Shown piece after piece: positions 9,315-53,722 of a stretch of 64,000 nt of DNA. Source of the DNA: Oscillospiraceae bacterium (lineage in GTDB: Bacteria; Bacillota; Clostridia; Oscillospirales; Ruminococcaceae). The stretch is from assembly GCA_015066115.1 (NCBI GenBank), contig SVOZ01000002.1:6246-70245 (forward strand). Reading direction: 5' to 3'. Below the pieces are notes generated by a model that did no database searches, was not told the origin of the DNA, and saw only the letters and a list, made by a program, of their open reading frames with translations. A program made the translations under genes and the position numbers. How positions within the stretch are numbered: position 1 is the stretch's first letter; each line of letters begins with the position of its first letter.

Positions 9315-9390
9315 GGGCCTGTAGCGCAGCTGGGAGCGCACCACACTGGCAGTGTGGGGGTCGTGGGTTCGAATCCCATCAGGTCCACCA
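9315..9390 (+). tRNA. tRNA-Ala (anticodon GGC), CCA encoded
   Basis: Cloverleaf folded by hand: 7-bp acceptor stem with G3:U70, D arm GCGC/GCGC, anticodon stem CCACA/TGTGG with loop CTGGCAG, T arm GTGGG-TTCGAAT-CCCAT, 76 nt. Confidence 0.9.
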
Positions 9391-9438: not shown

Positions 9439-9514
9439 GGGCTTGTAGCTCAGCTGGGAGAGCGCTGCGTTCGCAACGCAGAGGTCGAGGGTTCGATCCC
9501 CTTTAAGTCCACCA
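9439..9514 (+). tRNA. tRNA-Ala (anticodon CGC), CCA encoded
   Basis: Cloverleaf folded by hand: acceptor stem with G3:U70, anticodon stem CTGCG/CGCAG with loop TTCGCAA, T arm GAGGG-TTCGATC-CCCTT, 76 nt. Confidence 0.9.
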
Positions 9515-42322: not shown

Positions 42323-44167
42323 TTACTGCTTTTTATTTTTGCGGGTAAAAAGCTTGCCTACATTTTTTGCCTTTGACTGAGCCTTTTCTATAAAGCCCTC
42401 GGCAAAAGCGAGCTGATTTGGGTTTTTCTTGTACATCATATACATCACAACGCCGACGACAACCGAGATAAAGACAAGCAGGCCTATAACAATCAGAAAA
42501 ATTTCCACAAAGGTAAAGCCGCCGAGCCTTCTTACTCCCGTTGAAACATACTCGATCTTTTCAAGGCGAGCAATAGCACCAAACGGGTCGCTTGCCTCTG
42601 TGGGAATAATTATGTCGTCAACGCTTTCATTAGGAACATTTATTCCAATGACATATTTTGTGTTTTTATTTATCGACGAAACATAAAAGCGAGCATTTGC
42701 ATTGGCATCAACGACCGACGCCTGAAGCCTTTTAGGCTTGCCGCCCTCAAGCTGATATAAAAACGCATTTGAGTTGGCCGCCGAATCGGGAAGCTTTATA
42801 ACTACATTTGTTTTTATGCTTGAAGACTCTTTAAATGTTACCTGATAGCCGTTTTCTGTGCCGAGCTTTTTGTTTGTTTTGTCAGTAGACTCGGAAACGG
42901 TGTATGTAACGCCGGTGTCTTTTTTTACCTCGTCAAATTTAAGTTCACTGCAATCAATAAACCAAATGCTTCCGCTTGCGTCAACGACCTCAACCGTCAT
43001 TTTTCTGCCTGCAAGCTCCTGTAAAAAAAGCTTGTTTACGGTGTAGGTGTTTTTAAGATAAAGGGTAAGCCTTATTTCATCAAGCTGACCATCTAAGGAA
43101 TGGCTGTCGTTGATTTTAGAAAGAGCCTCTCTCAGCTCAATTATTGCCTTTCCCCAGCTTTGCTCTCCCTCAATCGTAAGGATGATGTGAACGCTATAGT
43201 AGGGGTGGCTGTTTTGCTCGTTTTTTGTCGTAACCGATGTTGAAAGGGTGATGTCCTCATCTGATTTGACTGTGCTGTTAGTCTGCGAGATAAGAGCGCC
43301 GTTTTTGTCTGTCTCGATATCGGAGGTTCGGGTTTCCTCATCAAGTTCTCCCGCTCCGACATAACCGCCGTTTTTAAGCTCGGGAACGTCCTCAGAGATC
43401 TGATTTCTAATGGACTTTACGGTATCCTTACCTCCCGAATGATAAACGGTGTACAGGTCATTACAACGCCTGAATGCGTAGGTTTCGATTTCTGTTACAG
43501 TTTCGGGCAGTTTTATCTGCGCAAGGCTTGAGCATCCGTAAAAGCACCATTCGGGAATGGCGGTTATCTCAGCGTTTATCTCAACCCTTAAAAGACTCTC
43601 GCAATAGGCAAATGCCTCTTTGCCGATGCTTTTAACGCTCTGCGGCACTGTAATACTTACAATGCTGCGGCAGAGGTAAAACGCCTTATCCGAGATTTTT
43701 TCAAGGCCATCGGGCAGAGATAGAGCCTCAAGCTTTTGGCAGTTATAAAAGGCGGCGCGCCCGATGGTTTTAAGGCTGTTTGAGAGGTCGACAAGGCGAA
43801 GGGATGTGCAGTTATAAAACGCCTTGTCGTAAATTATCTCAACTTTATCGGGGATAGAGATGGCTTTAAGCGAGGTGCAGTTATAAAAAGCAAGCGTGCC
43901 TACAGACTCAAGCTTTTCGGGCAAAACAACCGCTGTTATCTCATCGCTAAAGCTGCTCCACGGCGCTTTATTTGCCTCGCTGTAATTTTGCATTTTGCCC
44001 TTACCGCTTATGGTAAGGGTTCCCGCTGAATAGGACCATTTTAGGTTTTCGCCGCACTTTCCGCTCTCGGCGGCAAAGGCTTTAAAGCCCAAAAGCGCCG
44101 ACAAAGCTACTGAAATTGCGACAAGGCAAAAGGCCGCCCGCGCGATATTTAGTTTTTTCATTTGCAT
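42323..44167 (-). CDS. BspA-type leucine-rich-repeat surface protein with a signal peptide and a C-terminal TM anchor
   Basis: 614 aa with a signal peptide (AISVALSALLGFKAFA) and repeated units of the form xxIGxxAFYNCTSLxxIxIP (LRR_5/BspA type). A C-terminal hydrophobic helix is followed by a basic tail. RBS AAAGGAGG. Confidence 0.8.
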   Translation of the reverse strand: MQMKKLNIARAAFCLVAISVALSALLGFKAFAAESGKCGENLKWSYSAGTLTISGKGKMQNYSEANKAPWSSFSDEITAVVLPEKLESVGTLAFYNCTSLKAISIPDKVEIIYDKAFYNCTSLRLVDLSNSLKTIGRAAFYNCQKLEALSLPDGLEKISDKAFYLCRSIVSITVPQSVKSIGKEAFAYCESLLRVEINAEITAIPEWCFYGCSSLAQIKLPETVTEIETYAFRRCNDLYTVYHSGGKDTVKSIRNQISEDVPELKNGGYVGAGELDEETRTSDIETDKNGALISQTNSTVKSDEDITLSTSVTTKNEQNSHPYYSVHIILTIEGEQSWGKAIIELREALSKINDSHSLDGQLDEIRLTLYLKNTYTVNKLFLQELAGRKMTVEVVDASGSIWFIDCSELKFDEVKKDTGVTYTVSESTDKTNKKLGTENGYQVTFKESSSIKTNVVIKLPDSAANSNAFLYQLEGGKPKRLQASVVDANANARFYVSSINKNTKYVIGINVPNESVDDIIIPTEASDPFGAIARLEKIEYVSTGVRRLGGFTFVEIFLIVIGLLVFISVVVGVVMYMMYKKNPNQLAFAEGFIEKAQSKAKNVGKLFTRKNKKQ

Positions 44168-44180
44168 AGGGGCCTCCTTT

Positions 44181-44945
44181 TTAAGCTATTTTTTCCTCGC
44201 TCTTTTTCTTTCTCTCAATAACAAAAATCGCAATAACACCAACCAAAGACATAAAAATACAGTGAAATGAAATGGTTGACATTCCTAATAGCAACTTTTC
44301 ATTATTCATAAAGAAATCAGTTACAAACCGTGTTGTCCCAAATAAAATAAGCATAATTGGAAACTGTTTTGCGTCAGATACATAGTTTTTACTCTTTGTT
44401 CGATAAACTAGATACCATGTTATTACAAGCATAATTGCTACATTAATAATTTGGATTGGAAACACCGTAGTTTGCTCTGATGGTGAATACACTCCCCAAA
44501 CACAAGGATACCCAAAACAACACCCAGTAAAAAAACATCCAATAGAACAAATTGCATAATTTAGCAAATTTGCCGCTGCCAAAAGGTCTGCCGTAACTCT
44601 CCAAGGCACTCTTATAATCTTAGCTACTAGCAATGCAACAAGGGCAATCATCACAAATGTTTTCAGTTGAGCATTCACAAGGGTTTGAATCCCTAAAACA
44701 TGATATGTTGCTGCATATGTTGATCCAATTCTTGCTAACTCGGTCAGAAGAAAATCAAGGGGATATGCAATTAACAAAAAAATAAATATCTTAACTTCAG
44801 AAAGACCTATTTTTCTTCCATACCAAATAGAAAAAATTACCGCCGCTATAGCCGCAATCGCAATACAAACCGTTCGCATTGTATCAGAAAGCCCCGCCCT
44901 ATTAAACCATATAATAATGCTATTAATCCACTCCAAAAAAAACAC
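44181..44945 (-). CDS. Polytopic membrane protein, divergent Lgt (prolipoprotein diacylglyceryl transferase)-like
   Basis: About seven hydrophobic helices. The motif SIGCFFTGCCFGYP followed by FPIQIIN resembles the Lgt motif GR(I/L)GCFLxGCCYG...PTQLYE. The start is GTG. The gene is markedly AT-rich: hand counts of two 60-nt lines give about 27 and 37 percent G+C, against about 57 percent in a line of the adjacent LRR gene. Confidence 0.45.
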   Translation of the reverse strand: MFFLEWINSIIIWFNRAGLSDTMRTVCIAIAAIAAVIFSIWYGRKIGLSEVKIFIFLLIAYPLDFLLTELARIGSTYAATYHVLGIQTLVNAQLKTFVMIALVALLVAKIIRVPWRVTADLLAAANLLNYAICSIGCFFTGCCFGYPCVWGVYSPSEQTTVFPIQIINVAIMLVITWYLVYRTKSKNYVSDAKQFPIMLILFGTTRFVTDFFMNNEKLLLGMSTISFHCIFMSLVGVIAIFVIERKKKSEEKIA

Positions 44946-45033: not shown

Positions 45034-48000
45034 TCAGTTTACTTTTTCTGTCGAATCAGTTGTTGAACCTGTAACTGATGTTACCTTAGAACCCGACGGT
45101 TTTGATGTCGTTTCTGCGCCTTGGTTACCGTAAGAAATAACAGTTCGAGTCGTGATACTATCTTCCGTAACAGAAGTGGAAGTTGATTCAACTACAGCGG
45201 TGATAGTTGTAGGTCCAGTTACTTCAACAGTTGCACCAGGGGCATAGGTCACTCCGTTCACCTTCCACCCTGTCACTCGTTTGTTTGTGGTAGTAGTCGT
45301 AAGGCTTGATTGTGCTTTGTAAATCGTAGTAGTTTCTGTGTACGGAGTATAGTAGTGCGTTGTTTTTTCATTGCATCCGGATCCCGTAGTTTCAGAACGC
45401 TCGGTATAGACAGCACGTGTGGTCGGATTACCCTGCTGAATAAATTCGCCATTTGTGGTCTTCTCGCTAGTAGTAGACCACTTATATTCCTGACTCGGCA
45501 GAGTGATTGAATGCTTACCGAGCGGCGCATTCAACTGAATTTTGCTGGGCTGCTCTCCAGTGTAAGAAGCGTCGTTGATCTTAAAGGTTACAGCCTGGTG
45601 TGAATAACTCTGCATAATAGTAACAGGATGAGAAAGCTCAACTTCAAAGCTCACATTGCTATTCACCTGAACTGTGATTTTATTTACCGTTTGCTTGCCG
45701 GCTGCATAGATCGGAACATTACCCCAGTCACTCCCCACTCCGCCAATACTATTTTCTTGTGTCAATGCAGACGGCGTGAATGTATAGGTCTTATCATAGT
45801 CCGACTTTGCTTCATTCGGGAAAAATGCTTTCGCGTTTGTAAAACTGCTTGGCATATCCGACAATGTTAATTTAACTTTCGGGAGCGAGTAACCATGGGT
45901 AGCTCCAAACCACTCCTCACCATCATCCTTGATGTATACAACTGCTTCATATTCCGAGAAACTATTCGATACTCCTGTTGTTTGAGTGTACCCTTGAGGA
46001 CTGCTTATTGTTGCGCCAGTATTTACATTAAAGGTCGTGCCCACACCCGGATTAACTCCGGTTACCTTAATGGTCGGGCGCTTAGACCAAACCTCAAGGT
46101 CGAAGGCTTTGTAATCTTCTGTGAGCTTGTTCTGGTCAGTGATCTCCACTGCAGGATTTTCCGGTGCGCCATCCAGGTTCGCAATTACCTTAAATGCCAG
46201 CTTATTGGGCAGGTATCGGGTTGCATACTGGTAATTGACATCGTTGGTTGCAAGGGTGAAGTTTGTGTTCGATCCGGAGTCCTTATTAAAGCTCATAGGA
46301 GCAAGGGACACACCCGTAACAAAGCGCTCATCGGTGTAACCGCCGTAGGTGGTTCCATCAGATGAAACATTGCTGCCATACTCATAGGCAAAGGTCACAT
46401 TGTCTACATTAAAGTAGCCGCGTCCGATCAGGTTTTTGGTATCGTTAATGCGCACCTTAATTGCACCTGAGGAAAGCTTCTGCTCTGCAAGAAGCGTTTT
46501 AGTGAGGTTTCCTTCGGCATCCTTACCCAAGGTCAAAACGCCCTTGGTGGGATCTACCAACGTGTTTCCTGTAGCTTGGTTGGTGAAATTGATCTGGGTG
46601 ATCATATCCTCATGCAACACCGCCACTGTCTGAGGCTTAAAGGCGTCCTCTGTGGTTTGAGCATCAAAGATAATGCCTTTATTATAATCTTGCTCGGTCA
46701 TATTCTCGGCAGTCATGCCCTCAGGCAAAGAATGGAGAGTGGAGTTATTGTCATATGCATTGAAAAGGCTTACGCCTTCAATTTTCCATAATCCTGCCGG
46801 AACTGCAAATTGGTAAGCCAATGCTCCAACATCTTCCTGCTTATCATAAAGACCAACGTATTTAACTTCCTCAGTGTTATCCACATTTATAAGCTTTGCA
46901 AAGATTTGCTCTGCAGCATAATCCTTAATTACGACCGACATTGTTGCAGGCTTTGCACCGGCAGGAATATACTGTGCCTCGGATGCAACAACATCAACAA
47001 AGGAGGGCGGCATAGAAGGAATAATTGTAAATACAGGAGCATCTGAATTTACCTTAGTAAGCGTATTCTCCGGAGAATCGCCCACTCTTATTGAAACGTG
47101 GCTGAATTTCCATGTACCCGGCTCTACGCTAAGCTCGCCCTCGTAATAGCCCGCGCCTGAATTATACACAAGTTTTGTGGGAATATTTTCAGTGGCAGTC
47201 ATTTTATAGATAAGCCAAGCGTCTGCAAGGTTGGGAATAAGGTCGTTGTTATTATTAAGAATTTCGACCTGCACTTTAAGCGACTCGGGGGCATCCTCAT
47301 CATCGCACACGATAGTTGTAGGTGATGTTGTTTCAACATTTACCTTCATTCCGAGGGTGAGGTCAACTGTTTTCTGCATTCCCGAGGCAAGCTCGACATA
47401 CTGACCATCTAACACAACGTACTGCATTGTGTACTCGCCCGAAGAAACAAAGTTTGCATTTCCCTGCCAACTGTTCAGCGTCGGGTTATAGGCAAAGTTT
47501 ACGTTAACGGCGGCGCCGTCCTCACGCATAAATTTACCGATAACCGTTTGGGGCATTTTGTCTGGGTTATCTGTGCCAAACTTAAGAGTAACGCTTGCTG
47601 TGTAGAAATCGGCATCGGTCATAATAAACTCTTCCATATTATAAAGAACCGAATTTATAGCAAAACCGTTTACTACAACTGTAGGATAAGACGAGCCCTC
47701 ATTTATTCTAAGGTCTCGGTCTGTTCCGTCGATGGTAACACTACGTAAAATATACTCGCCTGGGTAAAGGAAGGTGTACTCGCCTTCCCAAATTCCGTCG
47801 CCATCGGCATCGTTTAAAATAAAGGTTTCTTCGGGGGAGCCTTGTGTGTCATTAATGCGGCGGATAAAGTTTGCCGTTAATGTGCTAGGCTGTGTGCCTG
47901 TTACCCTTATTTTAACCTTAGAGGTCATTTTCCGGCCATCTGTAATTTCATCGAAATTATGGGTAACAGGGTCTATTTCCTCAACCTGTGCATAAAGCTC

Positions 48001-50376
48001 AGAGTTATAAAGCTTTTCATTATTAAGCGGAATAAGGGATACTGAGCTGCCGAACTGGATATTCATCTGGCCTTCAATATCAGCAGAAGAGAGCACCTTG
48101 TCATTTGTAAGGTTGGTTCCGTCAAGGTAAACTATAGCGGTAATACGCTTGGGAACATTCTGCTCAAGCGCGGTAATTGCATATTTTTCTTGGCCGTTTA
48201 AATCGGTGCCGATACTTATGCTCTCAACATCTAATGCGAGAGGAACTATAACCTTACCTGCCGATGCATAATGGCGCTCGGTGTCCATATATGCCGTTGT
48301 GAGCAGTGTACCTGCCTCGTCAACAAAGGCGACCTTCATAGATTTTAAAAGCTCAAGGCTTCTCTGCTGGTCAACGGGGGTATCAGCATAAAAAACATAA
48401 CAGCTGCCGCTTCCCTGTGTGGTGCTTGAAACTGTTAAAAGAGAGTGCTTTTCGCCCTCCCAAACGCGATTATCGCCCTCATAACCGATAACCGTTTCAA
48501 CCTCTTTAACCTTTTTAAGCGGCGTAGGAATTTCCTGACCGCCGAGAGCTTCCTCTGTTACAACCTGATGGCTATCGGCAAAGCGCCAACAATCAACTTC
48601 TGTTTGCTGACCTTCGGGAATATATGTAGACTCATAAACGTCATAGGAAGCCACCATCATATCCTCAAGGGCGTTTCCGCCCTCGGTTTCACCATCGGTG
48701 TTTTCCTCACCCTCAGAGGTGTTTTCTACCCTGACGGTTATTGTATAAAGCTGTACTTCCTCGCCATTTAGGTCTTTTCCCTTTACGTCAACACTGTCTG
48801 TTCTTGTAAGAACATTTCCCTGCAGGGTAAGATAAGAGTTTGCCGCATTGGTGCGAACCCAGAAGTCAACTGCAAAGCCATAAGAGTCGTTTGCAATAAG
48901 TGTGGGCTCTCCGTATTCTTCATTGATTTTTTTAGCCAGAAATGCTCTTTCATTTTCAAAATAGTTATCTGTTGCGCTTGTGGAAACATTTGATTCAATC
49001 TTCTGCTCTCCCACAATCGAAACATTAACAGTAAGCCTAAGCGGCTCACCGAGGTTTTTAATTCTGGCGCCGCTTCGGCTATCCACATTATAGAGAATGC
49101 CGTTTGTGATTTTAGTTTCGCACTCGTTACCTGCAAGTTTTAAAGCGACACCTGCGCCAACACTTTTGATCTTAAGATTTTTATAATCTCCGCCTGTTAT
49201 GGTGCATTCGCCGACATTTGTAAGATTATTTATAATATCATCAATAATTCTTGTAGTTGTTCCTTCAACAAGCGGACAGTTAGGCCAGTTAATTGAAGTT
49301 TTTGTTCCAATGTAATCAACAAGGCCGTTTATACGCACCAAATCAGCCTTAAGAAGCCTATAGTCATAAAGGAAATTATCTATATCCTTTATAATTCCCA
49401 CAGTTTTATTGCTGTCGGGATAGGTCTCAAAGCCCATTTCAACAAGCTCTTTATAGGCTGTCTTTTGAGTCTTATCATAGGTCAGGGCGAGGATATCGCC
49501 TGCAGTAATCGTTACATCTTTTTTTAATATTTTTGCCTGAAGGTTTAAAAGGCTCGCATAAACCTCCGCCTGCTCTTCAAAACAAGCGATAAGCGACTCA
49601 TACATACTTGCAAACTGTTTTAAGTCGGAAAGCTTTAGTTTTGAGTCTTTTATCATACCTGCATAGTCAGGGCTATTAACCTTTAAAATATTCTCGACCA
49701 TATATCCCGTCATCATCGAGGCGAGGGCATCCATATAGTCCTGATTACTTGCAAGAGCTTCATATTTATTCTTAAATCTTACGTTTGCGGCTTCTACTCG
49801 GTTTAACTCGGCATTGTAAAAATTCTGCTCACCCGATTCGCCAAGGGTCATTGAGGTTATAGCGCGCACGCCAAGGTTATTGGAAGCTACAAAGCGCGAA
49901 GATAAAGTGTCCCAGCTGGAATAGCCAAAGTTTGTGTTCATATCGACAACTCGGCCTGTTGCATCATAAACAGGGCCGTAGAGCGGACGCTCGATAAGGT
50001 TTGTGTCGTTTAAAAGCGAGGGGCGCAAAACAAGGTTTTTAAGGCCGTAGCGCGGGTCGTTTAGGTTAATTAAGTTACCCCAGGTCAGATTGCGCGCAAG
50101 GGTTTCGAGTCTGCTATCTCCAACCGCACTTTTACCGGGAGCAGAGCTCTCCGAAATGGTGCCGCTGGCTAAGGCTATTTCAAGGTTACCGTTAGAGGCG
50201 ACGCTTGTGCTAACATCGGAAACCTGCGGATTTAATGACAAAGAGAGCCATGCAAATGTTGAGGTTACAAGCATTGCCATCGTCATTACAAACAGCAAAG
50301 CTACCGCAACAAGCTTTTCCTTAAGATGCGGAAGTTTCTCCTTATATTCAGCTATGTTTTTCTGCGTTTGATTCAT
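45034..50376 (-). CDS. Giant (1780 aa) secreted cluster paralogue: SipW-type signal, TasA-like module, tandem beta-sandwich-like repeats and a Thr-rich C-terminus
   Basis: N-terminus K-rich, then TM, then TSTFAWLSLSLNPQVSDVSTSVASNGNLEIALAS. NLTWGNLINLNDPRYG, FAVDFWVRTNAANSYLTLQG and RITAIVYLDGTNLTNDK...MNIQFGSS all parallel the 718-aa paralogue. Residues 800-1210 carry four roughly 105-aa repeats, each ending W-G...G-Y/W....V...G. RBS GGGAGA. Confidence 0.75.
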   Translation of the reverse strand: MNQTQKNIAEYKEKLPHLKEKLVAVALLFVMTMAMLVTSTFAWLSLSLNPQVSDVSTSVASNGNLEIALASGTISESSAPGKSAVGDSRLETLARNLTWGNLINLNDPRYGLKNLVLRPSLLNDTNLIERPLYGPVYDATGRVVDMNTNFGYSSWDTLSSRFVASNNLGVRAITSMTLGESGEQNFYNAELNRVEAANVRFKNKYEALASNQDYMDALASMMTGYMVENILKVNSPDYAGMIKDSKLKLSDLKQFASMYESLIACFEEQAEVYASLLNLQAKILKKDVTITAGDILALTYDKTQKTAYKELVEMGFETYPDSNKTVGIIKDIDNFLYDYRLLKADLVRINGLVDYIGTKTSINWPNCPLVEGTTTRIIDDIINNLTNVGECTITGGDYKNLKIKSVGAGVALKLAGNECETKITNGILYNVDSRSGARIKNLGEPLRLTVNVSIVGEQKIESNVSTSATDNYFENERAFLAKKINEEYGEPTLIANDSYGFAVDFWVRTNAANSYLTLQGNVLTRTDSVDVKGKDLNGEEVQLYTITVRVENTSEGEENTDGETEGGNALEDMMVASYDVYESTYIPEGQQTEVDCWRFADSHQVVTEEALGGQEIPTPLKKVKEVETVIGYEGDNRVWEGEKHSLLTVSSTTQGSGSCYVFYADTPVDQQRSLELLKSMKVAFVDEAGTLLTTAYMDTERHYASAGKVIVPLALDVESISIGTDLNGQEKYAITALEQNVPKRITAIVYLDGTNLTNDKVLSSADIEGQMNIQFGSSVSLIPLNNEKLYNSELYAQVEEIDPVTHNFDEITDGRKMTSKVKIRVTGTQPSTLTANFIRRINDTQGSPEETFILNDADGDGIWEGEYTFLYPGEYILRSVTIDGTDRDLRINEGSSYPTVVVNGFAINSVLYNMEEFIMTDADFYTASVTLKFGTDNPDKMPQTVIGKFMREDGAAVNVNFAYNPTLNSWQGNANFVSSGEYTMQYVVLDGQYVELASGMQKTVDLTLGMKVNVETTSPTTIVCDDEDAPESLKVQVEILNNNNDLIPNLADAWLIYKMTATENIPTKLVYNSGAGYYEGELSVEPGTWKFSHVSIRVGDSPENTLTKVNSDAPVFTIIPSMPPSFVDVVASEAQYIPAGAKPATMSVVIKDYAAEQIFAKLINVDNTEEVKYVGLYDKQEDVGALAYQFAVPAGLWKIEGVSLFNAYDNNSTLHSLPEGMTAENMTEQDYNKGIIFDAQTTEDAFKPQTVAVLHEDMITQINFTNQATGNTLVDPTKGVLTLGKDAEGNLTKTLLAEQKLSSGAIKVRINDTKNLIGRGYFNVDNVTFAYEYGSNVSSDGTTYGGYTDERFVTGVSLAPMSFNKDSGSNTNFTLATNDVNYQYATRYLPNKLAFKVIANLDGAPENPAVEITDQNKLTEDYKAFDLEVWSKRPTIKVTGVNPGVGTTFNVNTGATISSPQGYTQTTGVSNSFSEYEAVVYIKDDGEEWFGATHGYSLPKVKLTLSDMPSSFTNAKAFFPNEAKSDYDKTYTFTPSALTQENSIGGVGSDWGNVPIYAAGKQTVNKITVQVNSNVSFEVELSHPVTIMQSYSHQAVTFKINDASYTGEQPSKIQLNAPLGKHSITLPSQEYKWSTTSEKTTNGEFIQQGNPTTRAVYTERSETTGSGCNEKTTHYYTPYTETTTIYKAQSSLTTTTTNKRVTGWKVNGVTYAPGATVEVTGPTTITAVVESTSTSVTEDSITTRTVISYGNQGAETTSKPSGSKVTSVTGSTTDSTEKVN

Positions 50377-50411: not shown

Positions 50412-51068
50412 TTATTTAACGCGTTCAAGACAGATAAATATCTGCGATGAGCTTATCTGTGCATTATACAAGGTTAATTTAAATGTGAGGGTTGAGCTTT
50501 TGCCGCCCTGCAATAAAAACTCAAGCTCATCCGACTCATTTTGTTCGTCAATGCTTTCATAAAAGCAATAAAACTGCCCATTTTTTTGGTTTTTTTTGTA
50601 AAAATCGGTGTTTTCCTTTATTGTTTCGGCTTTTGATGGGTGCTCAACGTTTTCATTGTCTGCAAGAAGGGTTATTTCGGGGGTCAGGATTTCTGTTTCC
50701 TGCTTATCCTCCCCTTCTGCATTTAACTCTGTCTGAGCGCCTTCCATAACAAAGGCTCGGATGCGAAAGCGCGCATCTTTATCGGGCGGCTGAGCGCCAT
50801 CTTCGGCTATGTTGCTCAAGGTAAAGGTTCCGCTTATCTGGCCGCTTCCCGCTTGCCACTGCGTAGGCTCAAAAAGGGTTTTATCTGAGGCCTCATTAGA
50901 ATCAAGATAGATCGGCGGCTGAGCATCTGCCAAAAAGCCTATATCGTGATTTTCTTGGGTGATATATCTGCCATAGGTTATTCTGACAGACAGGCAGGCT
51001 ATCAGCATAAGCGAAAGCACAAGAACAGATATTTTAAATACAAGGCTTGTTTTGTATTTTTCGCTCAT
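50412..51068 (-). CDS. Small cluster protein with a signal peptide (lipobox-like LIAC and/or a SipW-like ITYGRY motif)
   Basis: 218 aa starting MSEKYKTSLVFKISVLVLSLMLIAC-LSVRITYGRYITQ. RBS AAGGAG. I recognise no family. Confidence 0.6.
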   Translation of the reverse strand: MSEKYKTSLVFKISVLVLSLMLIACLSVRITYGRYITQENHDIGFLADAQPPIYLDSNEASDKTLFEPTQWQAGSGQISGTFTLSNIAEDGAQPPDKDARFRIRAFVMEGAQTELNAEGEDKQETEILTPEITLLADNENVEHPSKAETIKENTDFYKKNQKNGQFYCFYESIDEQNESDELEFLLQGGKSSTLTFKLTLYNAQISSSQIFICLERVK

Positions 51069-51108: not shown

Positions 51109-53025
51109 TTATTCCTTTACTACCGTGTACCCATCTGAAGAGCTGTTTATACTGTAGCTTTCTTTAAGGTAAGCTGACACGTCGCTGCTAAAGCTTCCAC
51201 CCGAAATTTCTATTTTTGCCTGTGAAACGCCCTCAGGGTACTGTCTTACAGCGAGAGTTCCCTCCTGAGTGCCTGTAATTTTAGTTTTATCGCCAGAAAT
51301 GAACACATTTGTTTGCCATTCGGTGTAATTTGCTTCGAGGTAAACTCCGTCGCCTGTATCCCACCAGCCGCTCTTGGAAAGCTCTGAGGGATCGCTGGGC
51401 AGAGGCGTATACTCGCCTGTTCCCGTTACGGTACAGTCGACAATATTAACGGTTCCGCCCTTGACAGCAACGCCTGTATATCCCTCAAGCGTACTTGAAG
51501 TTACAGTTAATGTACTGTCTTTTTGCGGGAAGTAAATTGCGGCGTACTTACCTTTTACGCTGCTGTTTGTAATTTGAATATCGGTTCCGTACTGAGCGCC
51601 GTTACAGATAACGCCGGCATAATTCTGTCCTATAATATTGCAATTTTCTACAACAATGGACGTTTTTTGCTCGGAAACGGCACCGTTTCCATAGATCCAG
51701 AGGCCATCCTCGGCGGCATTTATCTCACAGCCCTTAAGGTGCACCACAGAATCAATGCCGCTACTGCTCTTATTATCTGAAATCACAACTCCGTCATCGA
51801 CATTTGTAATGGTAACATTATTTAGGGTTACAGAGGACGCTATCGACGAGACGCCTATTCCCTCATTTCCGCAAATTTCTCCGTTACTGAGCATTACAGA
51901 AGCTCCATCCTTCGCCTCTACCACAGTTGCGGCGGTAGATGTGATCTTATGGCCTGCAAGGTCAATTACTGCCTGAGAAGATTCGTTAATGCTTATAGCC
52001 TCGCTTAAAGTTATATCTTCATTAAGGGTTACTAAATTAAGTCCCGGAGTGCTGAGAGCCTCATTTAAGCTCTGCTCGTCAAACACCAACACGCCGTCAC
52101 TACTGCAGTTTTGTCCTGTTATCTGAACGGTAGCCTCTCCGATTGGTTGGCTGTTACCGCCGAGCTGAGTATCTAAGACCGAGCCTGCATTAATCTCATC
52201 AAGAGTGCAAAGATATGCAAACACTCCATAGCCTGTTTCATTATTAATGTCAACAGGATAGTAACCCTCAGATGTAACGGCACTTGTGTCTATCTGGCCC
52301 TCGTAGCCGTCTGTTTGCGAGAAGGTTTTGAGAAACTCCTCAGCAGTTATCTCTCCGTCTACGGTTTCGAGCCTGCCGTTTGACTTAAAGGTTGTTTTCA
52401 TAAAGTCAAAATCATATTCAATGGGGCGCAAAAACTCTTCTATCTGCACATTTCCTGTTTCGGTTTTTCTGCCGTAAACATAGTGTCCCAAATTGTCATA
52501 GGTCCATTCCCATTTAATTACTGGCTGGGCTCCCGACTTAAACCCAAGCATAAGCTCATTGTGGGGGAAAATCGTGTATGTATAGCTGTTTCTGCCGTTA
52601 ATATACACGCGGTCTACCGTTTCTCCGTGTCTTACGGCAGAGGTGTCAACATAAAAGTAGACGCGTTTTTTCATTTGGTCAATTATCGCATCTTTTGAAA
52701 TTTTCACGCTTGCGGCGGCAAGGTCGGCGCTGTCATTAGTCATCTGAATTTCTATAACGCCGCTATCACCCGGTGATGCCGGAGTATCTACCCCTGCGAG
52801 CTCAACCTTTGCGCTGAAATTCCAGGTGTCTGCCGAGAACATAAGTCCGCCCGTGTGGACAACGTTGGTCTGCCACGCAATTGTTTGCGAAAAGATGAGC
52901 ACAGTCGTGACAATGAGCATAATCAAAAGCAAAGCCACATGAAAAATAACCTTTTTCTTAAATGGCTTTAAAGCTGCGAGCAGGTTGCCCAAGGGGTTAT
53001 TCAGTTTTGGGCTGGGTATCTTCAC
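51109..53025 (-). CDS. Cluster paralogue with a SipW-type signal, a TasA-like N-domain and a C-terminal right-handed beta-helix-like repeat region
   Basis: 638 aa with a TM helix then SQTIAWQT, and SPGDSGVIEIQMTNDSADL (compare the TasA PGD...N-G motif). The C-terminal half has irregular 20-25-aa repeats rich in G/N/V/T/I (VTLNNVTITNVDDGVVISDN; IVVENCNIIGQNYAGVICNG; IQITNSSVKGKYAAIYF), as in pectate-lyase-fold proteins. The GTG start lies 10 nt after GAGGAG. Confidence 0.65.
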   Translation of the reverse strand: MKIPSPKLNNPLGNLLAALKPFKKKVIFHVALLLIMLIVTTVLIFSQTIAWQTNVVHTGGLMFSADTWNFSAKVELAGVDTPASPGDSGVIEIQMTNDSADLAAASVKISKDAIIDQMKKRVYFYVDTSAVRHGETVDRVYINGRNSYTYTIFPHNELMLGFKSGAQPVIKWEWTYDNLGHYVYGRKTETGNVQIEEFLRPIEYDFDFMKTTFKSNGRLETVDGEITAEEFLKTFSQTDGYEGQIDTSAVTSEGYYPVDINNETGYGVFAYLCTLDEINAGSVLDTQLGGNSQPIGEATVQITGQNCSSDGVLVFDEQSLNEALSTPGLNLVTLNEDITLSEAISINESSQAVIDLAGHKITSTAATVVEAKDGASVMLSNGEICGNEGIGVSSIASSVTLNNVTITNVDDGVVISDNKSSSGIDSVVHLKGCEINAAEDGLWIYGNGAVSEQKTSIVVENCNIIGQNYAGVICNGAQYGTDIQITNSSVKGKYAAIYFPQKDSTLTVTSSTLEGYTGVAVKGGTVNIVDCTVTGTGEYTPLPSDPSELSKSGWWDTGDGVYLEANYTEWQTNVFISGDKTKITGTQEGTLAVRQYPEGVSQAKIEISGGSFSSDVSAYLKESYSINSSSDGYTVVKE

Positions 53026-53722
53026 TTGCTTTTAACTCCTCTATAAGTTCTTCTCTGATTCTCTGACACATTTGGTCATATTCCTGCGAAGAAATCACTT
53101 CTGATTTTACATCGGCTAACTGCGCTTTATCTTGCTCCTCAACCGACATAACAAGCTTTTTCATATCCTGTTTAATGGTTTTAACACTACTGCTTAAAAC
53201 TAATGCCAAAATTAAAACCGACGGAAGCACTATACAGGCAAAAAAGCCATAGCGCCCCGAAACAAAGGAAAGCAGAGAGGAAATGGCGCTATCGCCCGAA
53301 GACCATACAACCTTTCCCACCAAATTGCTTTCAAGCACATATCTTCCGTCTACCGAAAGATTGGCATCTCCCTTTGTTAAAAGCCTTCTTTGGCCATCCT
53401 CAGCTCTATCGATATCAACCACTCTGTGAGTAATTATAGTTCCAAACATATCAGCCGACTGAGAGCGGAAGCTTACTATATCCTCCATCTGCACCTCTTC
53501 TATGGGCACATCCTTAGTTAAGATAATTTCTCCAACCATAAGGTTTGGCTCCATACTCGGCGTTACAACCCGAAAAAAACTATATTTTCCGAAAGAAACA
53601 TAGCCCTTTCCGAGCACCTGAACAACAACAAACAGGCACAAGCATACCGTTATAACAAGCAGTGCCGTTGCCGCTGAGGACAATATTTTTTTAAGAAGTT
53701 TTTTATTTTGTTGCTTCTTCAT
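52997..53722 (-). CDS. sipW: SipW-type (S26B, Ser/His) signal peptidase I, copy 2, with a C-terminal TM helix and an acidic coiled-coil tail
   Basis: N-terminal TM helix, TPSMEP (catalytic Ser), ITHRV (His) and TKGDAN, then a second TM helix (FFACIVLPSVLILALVL) and a roughly 60-aa charged tail. The ATG at 53722 overlaps the upstream gene by 20 nt. Confidence 0.8.
   Translation of the reverse strand: MKKQQNKKLLKKILSSAATALLVITVCLCLFVVVQVLGKGYVSFGKYSFFRVVTPSMEPNLMVGEIILTKDVPIEEVQMEDIVSFRSQSADMFGTIITHRVVDIDRAEDGQRRLLTKGDANLSVDGRYVLESNLVGKVVWSSGDSAISSLLSFVSGRYGFFACIVLPSVLILALVLSSSVKTIKQDMKKLVMSVEEQDKAQLADVKSEVISSQEYDQMCQRIREELIEELKASEDTQPKTE

Follow-up and report, generated by a model that had tools for sequence, protein, structure and literature searches.

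Within a window of 64,000 nucleotides (the whole stretch of DNA analysed; Oscillospiraceae bacterium, GenBank assembly GCA_015066115.1, contig SVOZ01000002.1, positions 6,246 to 70,245 of the forward strand), the minus-strand open reading frame (ORF) P0001 at 45034..50376 encodes a protein of 1780 residues, which we call the giant. The frame is open throughout, as given in an initial annotation of the window. Phylogenetic analysis shows that the giant carries a distal cassette with a history unlike that of its proximal part; to judge from the sequences, the cassette was exchanged by recombination between lineages. Receptor-binding proteins show a pattern of this kind, with conservation in the proximal part that attaches them and exchange at the distal end. 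Because a long β stalk, a drop in conservation from the N- to the C-terminus and distal swapping are what an adhesive subunit would show, we propose, with about an even chance of being right, that the giant is an exported, anchor-less adhesive subunit of a SipW/McrBC-like (CoCoPALM) surface-fibre operon. New here are the conservation gradient and the differing distal history, with breakpoints near domain borders. The parts of the giant are as follows.

Residues 1-42, 50251..50376 (-): signal region with conserved cytoplasmic n-region (I8, L15, P16), transmembrane helix 20-44 and predicted SipW site [TS]-[FY]-A42/W43
Residues 43-69, 50170..50250 (-): predicted mature N-terminus with near-invariant W-L-S-L-S-x-x-P-E-V...N-G-N-L-E-I-A-L; candidate donor strand and first core strand
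Residues 43-790, 48007..50250 (-): N-module, common to a 718-residue paralogue; mixed α/β fold without structural relative in the libraries searched
Residues 183-356, 49309..49830 (-): long-helix insert inside the N-module, its least conserved part (median identity 46%)
Residues 795-888, 47713..47994 (-): D1, β-sandwich repeat 1 (AlphaFold2, HHalign)
Residues 899-995, 47392..47682 (-): D2, β-sandwich repeat 2 (AlphaFold2, HHalign)
Residues 1002-1106, 47059..47373 (-): D3, β-sandwich repeat 3 (AlphaFold2, HHalign)
Residues 1116-1204, 46765..47031 (-): D4, β-sandwich repeat 4; recombination junction zone, near neither donor lineage
Residues 1216-1592, 45601..46731 (-): D5-D6, distal β domains, part of the swapped cassette
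Residues 1593-1780, 45037..45600 (-): optional Thr-rich C-terminal module with a conserved TGWKV..TY..G.T..TG..T.TAV block and predicted very long β strands

Ancestry of the distal end

Expressed as median identity to 75 homologues, conservation is 65% over residues 43-180, 59% over residues 361-790, 56-58% in D1 and D2 and 45% in D3, and it declines distally to 33% in D4, 31% in D5 and 21% in D6. Two sets of relatives relate to the giant in opposite ways along its length, as seen from their identities to it.

P0005-type relatives: residues 43-1110, 66-83%; D5-D6, 22-34%; tail absent
P0003 and P0004: residues 43-1215, 39-64%; D5-D6, 71-81%; tail, 57-60%

The tree of the proximal part places the giant within the P0005-type clade (support of 98 in the Shimodaira-Hasegawa-like approximate likelihood ratio test, SH-aLRT), with P0003 and P0004 outside (99). 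In the distal tree the giant groups with P0003 and P0004 (100), inside a clade composed mostly of other tail-bearing giants (96). With the approximately unbiased (AU) test, a grouping of the giant of the window with P0003 and P0004 was rejected on the proximal data (log-likelihood difference 70, p 0.0003), while the distal data rejected both its grouping with P0005 (p 0.0004) and its placement on the tail-less side (p 0.0035). When an eight-row group was kept together in the distal tree, the test returned p 0.118, although the log-likelihood differed by 416; this grouping was badly chosen and was replaced by the cleaner ones above. The groups were named after the trees had been seen; this lowers the weight of the p-values but leaves the pattern intact. 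In sliding windows, the breakpoints fall at about residue 1120, on the D3/D4 border, and at about residue 1250, just past the D4/D5 border, and D4 is close to neither lineage. The distal cassette was found in other giants only.

Phage tail fibres and large repeat adhesins likewise have a conserved proximal and a variable distal part, with exchanges near domain borders. This is an analogy of evolutionary pattern only, and the viral library searched holds no structural match for the N-module.

Domain structure of the stalk

The initial annotation described residues 800-1210 as four repeats of about 105 residues. A plain BLAST self-comparison of residues 781-1780 detected no repeats, and Smith-Waterman alignment against shuffled sequences gave z=9.1 for the first and second repeat (R1-R2), z=3.5 for R1-R3 and nothing significant for R4. 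Profiles built from a 68-sequence family alignment (A1), from which the AlphaFold2 model of the stalk was also made, brought all six pairs of D1-D4 into register in HHalign (D1-D2, probability 96.8%, E 3e-10; D1-D3, E 9e-5; the remaining four pairs, E 1-2e-3). Pairs with D5, D6 or the tail were short, out of register or insignificant. The model is all-β, with a mean predicted local distance difference test (pLDDT) value of 89.3, and contains discrete domains at residues 795-888, 899-995, 1002-1106 and 1116-1204, then more β domains to about residue 1590 and finally very long strands in the tail. Because the profile pairs are in register and AlphaFold2 gives separate domains, the four repeats are, at the level of these models, real independent domains from an ancient duplication. 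The predicted borders (795-1204) agree with the annotated ones, and each repeat is predicted to fold on its own as an all-β domain.

A fold of the immunoglobulin (Ig) type had been raised for the repeats. Foldseek against the PDB returned strings of Ig-like or macroglobulin (MG)-type β-sandwiches with probability 1.0, a generic likeness only; the matches comprise alpha-2-macroglobulins, C3/C5, PirB, mastigoneme and the Sap S-layer assembly domain. The best of them (E 1e-14 to 1e-9) are the MG arrays of alpha-2-macroglobulin and complement, which share with the stalk a string of β-sandwich domains. They differ from it in that the TM-score is about 0.1 and the identity 8-10%, and in the giant no CGEQ, bait region or thioester domain was identified.

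The Sap and mastigoneme-type β arrays bring up another explanation, in which the giant is secreted matrix or S-layer-like material that is released and self-associates or binds polysaccharide, without a defined position on a fibre. The giant lacks an anchor of any kind, and the SipW substrates TasA and BsaA are matrix proteins (PMC11580942). Both matches are nevertheless generic, with a TM-score of about 0.1, and the N-to-C gradient and the swapping of the cassette indicate one specific exposed end and not a lattice surface, so that we regard this explanation as improbable.

The threonine-rich tail

The annotated Thr/Ser-rich composition of the C-terminal end is borne out by a threonine plus serine content of 38% over residues 1640-1780. 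Its supposed resemblance to Listeria-Bacteroides (Flg_new) repeats is not: Pfam gave no Flg_new match in the giant even at E<=5, and Big_11 at residues 1698-1745 scored 19 bits, below the cut-off of 25. Among the 67 aligned homologues, 12 share the tail, and overall it occurs in about 15-20% of relatives. Most homologues stop near the equivalent of residue 1592, and only some 15% reach beyond residue ~1600. The tail is an add-on that varies among relatives and is carried by a minority of them, not a family-wide feature. Because the 12 tail-bearing homologues conserve specific blocks (YTER, YTPY.ETTTV, TGWKV..TY..G.T..TG..T.TAV and TRTV..Y), it appears to be a genuine optional module of ~190 residues and more than low complexity.

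Export and the mature N-terminus

Residues 20-44 form the sole hydrophobic segment of the giant. In agreement with the initial annotation, neither an LPXTG signal nor a C-terminal anchor or transmembrane segment is present. Among 204 relatives of at least 1300 residues, the cleavage motif occurs in 191 and LPxTG within the last 60 residues in one; a C-terminal hydrophobic segment occurs in none. The N-terminal transmembrane helix, the SipW-type motif and two SipW genes in the operon speak against an intracellular protein; by these features the giant is predicted to be exported without an anchor by means of a SipW-type signal, with probable cleavage at A42/W43.

Residue conservation was counted over 38 sequences. 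The cleavage context [TS]40-[FY]41-A42 is 95% conserved. Immediately downstream, W43, P50, N62, G63, L65 and E66 are 100% conserved, S47 97% and E51 87%, where the mean column identity of the family alignment is 30%; conservation after the predicted cut far exceeds what a signal peptidase needs. In TasA and BsaA fibres, the subunits join by pairing of an N-terminal strand with another subunit (PMC11580942). Because the corresponding segment of the giant is near-invariant, is shared by four paralogues and overlaps residues of low confidence in the monomer model (pLDDT <50 at residues 33-49), we infer by analogy that its mature N-terminus is a strand that pairs with another subunit.

The cytoplasmic n-region (residues 1-20, 50317-50376, minus strand) is conserved too: I8 97%, Y11 84%, L15 100%, P16 97% and E20 87%. 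This is unusual for a signal peptide that is discarded, and the n-region may be read by a cytoplasmic component, candidates being the membrane-bound McrB-like NTPase and the SipW tails that face the cytoplasm.

The N-terminus also bears on whether the giant is part of a fibre at all. It could instead be a stand-alone surface stalk, either held by an uncleaved signal-anchor or, once cleaved, kept at the wall or membrane by its N-module, and act as a monomeric adhesin with its variable C-terminal end outward; the 718-residue protein would be a shorter version of it. AlphaFold draws residues 2-47 as one continuous helix, conservation of I8, L15 and P16 would be pointless in a peptide that is merely discarded, no fold or profile links the giant to known polymerising subunits, and the conservation gradient and mosaic suit any surface adhesin equally. 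On the other hand, T-[FY]-A/W agrees with the cleavage context of genuine SipW substrates, the operon has two dedicated SipW genes, and positions +1 to +27 past the predicted cut are the most conserved and are common to four paralogues, which fits an exposed, interacting N-terminus. Taken together, we consider the stand-alone stalk possible but rather unlikely.

The N-module and the 718-residue paralogue

The paralogue that shares the N-module lies upstream in the same operon.

60661..62817 (-): 718-residue paralogue, same N-module without C-terminal extension

Residues 1-790 of the giant had been annotated as collinear with this protein. BLASTP supports the claim with three ordered blocks, which align residues 18-221 with 12-216 (34% identity, E 7e-24), 499-525 with 487-513 (48%, E 1e-3) and 734-790 with 650-708 (42%, E 1e-9), and which hold every motif listed in the annotation: the signal, the NLTWGNLINL block, the DFWVRTNA strand and the VYLDG...NIQFGSS ending. 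Relatives of the N-module were found nowhere else in the genome; all sit in the operon of the giant. When the seven exported proteins encoded at the locus were compared all-versus-all by BLAST, the first ~70 residues proved common to the giant and the 365-, 452- and 718-residue proteins, and the whole N-module common to the giant and the 718-residue protein only.

The AlphaFold model of residues 1-800 (pLDDT 80.7, predicted template modelling score 0.70) consists of a long N-terminal helix, a β core, a helical insert of 170 residues and a mixed α/β region. The invariant polar residues of the module are D504, R508, T509, N510, E633, N636, R637, Q654, S658 and C659; D504, R508, T509 and N510, as well as Q774, are kept in the 718-residue paralogue. 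Within the stretch T-Q-G-S-G-S-C-Y at residues 653-660 (48397-48420, minus strand), which is near-invariant in giants, Q654 is 94% and C659 97% conserved. The equivalent of the paralogue reads T-M-G-S-G-S-T-M, with both Q654 and C659 replaced. The T-Q-G-S-G-S-C-Y block is possibly a giant-specific site or covalent link.

Three specific bonds were considered. A C391-C659 disulfide was dropped: a fixed disulfide partner for C659 is unlikely because C391 is just 50% conserved. An isopeptide bond of the kind formed by the N-E-K triad of BsaA was dropped as the module has no invariant Lys, and a thioester as the sequence has no CGEQ.

A further possibility is that the N-module is an enzyme or cross-linking domain, in which the invariant polar residues would form a catalytic or covalent-bond site and the stalk would direct it to a substrate. 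Many polar residues of the N-module are invariant, its fold has no known relative, and Q654 and C659 are at once highly conserved in giants and replaced in the 718-residue paralogue. The last point cuts both ways: because the paralogue lacks Q654 and C659, the polar site is not common to the module. Searches of Pfam, NCBIfam and the PDB matched no enzyme family, and the operon context is one of secretion or assembly. An enzymatic or cross-linking N-module therefore seems to us very doubtful.

Distribution and genomic context

A word-based search found 76 full-length relatives of 1093-2558 residues (71 of them at 1500-1905 residues) and 28-68% identity, all unnamed or called 'hypothetical protein [Clostridia bacterium]'. 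An exhaustive HMMER search with a profile of the N-module only (A3) yielded 2072 cluster representatives, of which 1210 reach E<=1e-30, and nearly all of the top 150 matches are 1400-1950 residues long. In species-representative genomes there are 131 relatives, in metagenome-assembled genomes of Acutalibacteraceae, Oscillospiraceae, Lachnospiraceae and others from the guts of ruminants and other animals, and the fused giant form occurs in all 63 testable loci. Pfam gave no domain in any of 27 diverse family members, Pfam and NCBIfam no family for the whole giant or for its seven separate domains, and sequence searches of the PDB with phmmer and the family profile nothing meaningful for the giant. 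The protein family was found in one of the 10 congeners searched and in one of 24 genomes belonging to the same bacterial family; further carriers belong to other families of the order. Because this distribution is patchy, it suggests an accessory, mobile locus and horizontal spread of the whole operon. The host genome is small, with 1.6 Mb, and is 97.75% complete.

Three neighbours of the giant are listed below.

50412..51068 (-): 218-residue exported protein directly upstream of the giant; T-Y-G-R-Y after the transmembrane helix, a variant of T-F-A-W-L; frequent neighbour
52997..53764 (-): SipW/archaeal-type signal peptidase I, copy 2; TIGR02228, 79 bits against a cut-off of 51.9
58584..59420 (-): SipW/archaeal-type signal peptidase I, copy 1; TIGR02228, 81 bits against a cut-off of 51.9; SipW model 101 bits

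The operon further encodes a putative AAA_5-like and McrB-like membrane NTPase of 529 residues (AAA_5 at 21.8 bits, cut-off 22) and a long E/R/K-rich neighbour of 630 residues, presumably coiled-coil, without a Pfam family. Two distant loci whose giants are 32-37% identical show the same gene order, to judge from the place of each gene and the length of its product: ~530 residues (the McrB-like position), ~600, ~450, ~240 (the SipW position), ~630, ~215-350 and the giant, which is the last gene of the block. In two other genomes the giant co-occurs with a partner of 632-711 residues, a paralogue of ~450 residues and a paralogous frame of ~330-350 residues, the last of which contains a single stop in one of these genomes. 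A scan for promoters and terminators gave counts at or below shuffle expectation. Rfam found only two tRNAs (9315-9387 and 9439-9511) and no riboswitch over window positions 1-64000, past the end of which the 5' end of the operon may lie.

These features resemble those of CoCoPALM, defined by signal-peptidase-family genes linked to a McrB-like GTPase with transmembrane and coiled-coil segments and to a coiled-coil McrC-like partner (PMC11090510). The operon of the giant has its SipW-family peptidases and, putatively, its membrane AAA_5/McrB-like NTPase and long coiled-coil partner, with the same gene order in distant gut Clostridia. From these sequence comparisons, the giant is a conserved component of CoCoPALM-type loci in Clostridia of the gut and rumen. 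CoCoPALM was named by Bell et al. (eLife 2024, PMC11090510), who deferred its description and did not describe the secreted cargo. The literature searched contained no paper on secreted components, and the giant architecture, the N-module and the distal mosaic were not in print there. The locus type is thus already named, and the architecture and mosaic evolution of the giant are undescribed.

Several further observations concern the neighbouring genes. An upstream ORF with the motif [TSAVI][FYLW][GAS]R[FYW] and ~140-190 residues past it is present in 30 of 62 related loci, as judged by crude ORF calling, and the 218-residue protein may be a dedicated partner of the giant. An exported paralogue of 638 residues (51109-53025, minus strand) contains a right-handed β-helix (PF13229, E 3e-8, residues 427-567) and is a candidate second binding or enzymatic subunit of the operon. 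Two genes downstream of the giant lies a BspA-type LRR_5 surface protein (42323-44167, minus strand) with an ordinary Sec signal and a C-terminal transmembrane anchor. An LRR_5 protein is also found inside the CoCoPALM operon of a distant relative (locus L005, 3333-5123), and its association with the locus may be recurrent. Directly after the giant follows a divergent Lgt-like (prolipoprotein diacylglyceryl transferase) gene (44181-44945, minus strand; PF01790, E 7e-12), which is probably not part of the system because it does not follow the giant in L005.

Comparison with known fibre subunits

The first 790 residues had been described as fibre-subunit-like. The closest known counterparts in this respect are TasA, camelysin and BsaA, SipW-processed subunits that polymerise by donor-strand exchange: like the giant, they have dedicated SipW-type peptidases in the same operon, the same signal architecture and cleavage context, several paralogues per operon and no sortase signal. 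Ten genuine Peptidase_M73 proteins from Clostridia genomes served as the comparison set. These start with ...G-A-T-Y-A-W-F-T-x8-N-x-F-T-A-G-T-V-E-I, visibly the same pattern as T-S-T-F-A-W-L-S-L-S...S-N-G-N-L-E-I in the giant, and in HHalign the similarity between the N-module and M73 profiles was significant solely over the signal and cleavage motif (29 columns, probability 87.7%, E 3e-6). The giant differs from the TasA family in that its mature protein is 8-9 times larger, has no PF12389 match, no likeness of mature profiles and no significant fold match, and carries a C-terminal stalk of 1000 residues not known there.

Several results weigh against an adhesive fibre subunit. After removal of the signal, the HHalign probability between N-module and M73 was 0.2%, and PF12389 (Peptidase_M73) had no match in the giant at E<=0.1; in the whole genome it had none at E<=1, in a search that did find the B. 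subtilis control. Foldseek with the N-module model gave nothing in the PDB at E<=0.001 (best E 0.03) and no match in the viral library BFVD, and the TasA-like archaeal pilus 7ueg reached E 0.29 and probability 0.08 in a search with the whole module, whose large insertions may hide the core. Pfam identified no binding domain of known specificity in the giant. The evidence for cleavage is the motif itself, and the matches of the stalk amount to a generic beads-on-a-string likeness. The data fit a tip, lateral or base subunit and a non-polymerised surface protein alike.

A TasA fold for the N-module found no support beyond the signal in the profile comparison with the genuine M73 proteins. Because the mature N-module has no profile or fold match, membership of the TasA family appears to be supported for the signal only. 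At the level testable with models, the mature N-module has no structural relative in the libraries searched. Of the fibre-subunit-like description, the paralogy with the 718-residue protein and the SipW-type signal stand; a profile or fold match to TasA/camelysin or to solved or viral structures does not. The description derives from signal peptide and paralogy, not from fold. The popular label 'TasA-like' likewise has its sole basis in the signal peptide.

Tip adhesins of sortase pili and two-domain adhesins of chaperone-usher pili offer a second comparison. Their logic is that of the giant: one module resembles the shaft subunit, and a second, more variable region is the presumed binding part. 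The giant differs from the former in having no LPXTG, pilin motif or sortase, and from the latter in its reversed order, since its assembly module lies at the N-terminus and its presumed binding end at the C-terminus. Homology to either was not found.

Proposed mechanism and biological implications

For the adhesive subunit, we propose the following mechanism. The N-terminal helix would target the giant to the membrane, where one of the two SipW-type peptidases of the operon would cut after T-F-A42, as the motif suggests. Cleavage would expose W-L-S-L-S-x-x-P-E-V, and this N-terminus, together with the N-module of ~750 residues, would attach the giant to other subunits, the likeliest route being strand complementation as in TasA/BsaA fibres. 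The C-terminal 1000 residues are predicted to form a stalk of four diverged tandem β-sandwich domains and further β domains, followed by the fast-evolving distal cassette as the putative ligand-binding end. The giant would then serve as an adhesive subunit that sits at the fibre tip or decorates its shaft, with the 718-residue protein as a shaft-type subunit; a tip or decorating adhesin is plausible by analogy.

We put forward a bolder version only tentatively and consider it unlikely to hold in full. Here the N-module would be a new fold of a self-assembling subunit, linked through the SipW-exposed strand W43-V52, and the giants would be recombination-shuffled tip adhesins of an unseen class of Gram-positive pili, with a membrane McrBC-derived GTPase that drives or gates assembly and might read the n-region.

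The predicted cleavage site and candidate linking strand, the domain borders for constructs and the defined exchangeable distal cassette provide handles for experiments. CoCoPALM loci, so far known by name only, are present in hundreds of Clostridia of the gut and rumen that have not been cultured. Because the giant is the largest and most variable CoCoPALM product, it would be the likeliest determinant of what the carriers stick to, be it host mucus, plant fibre or other cells.

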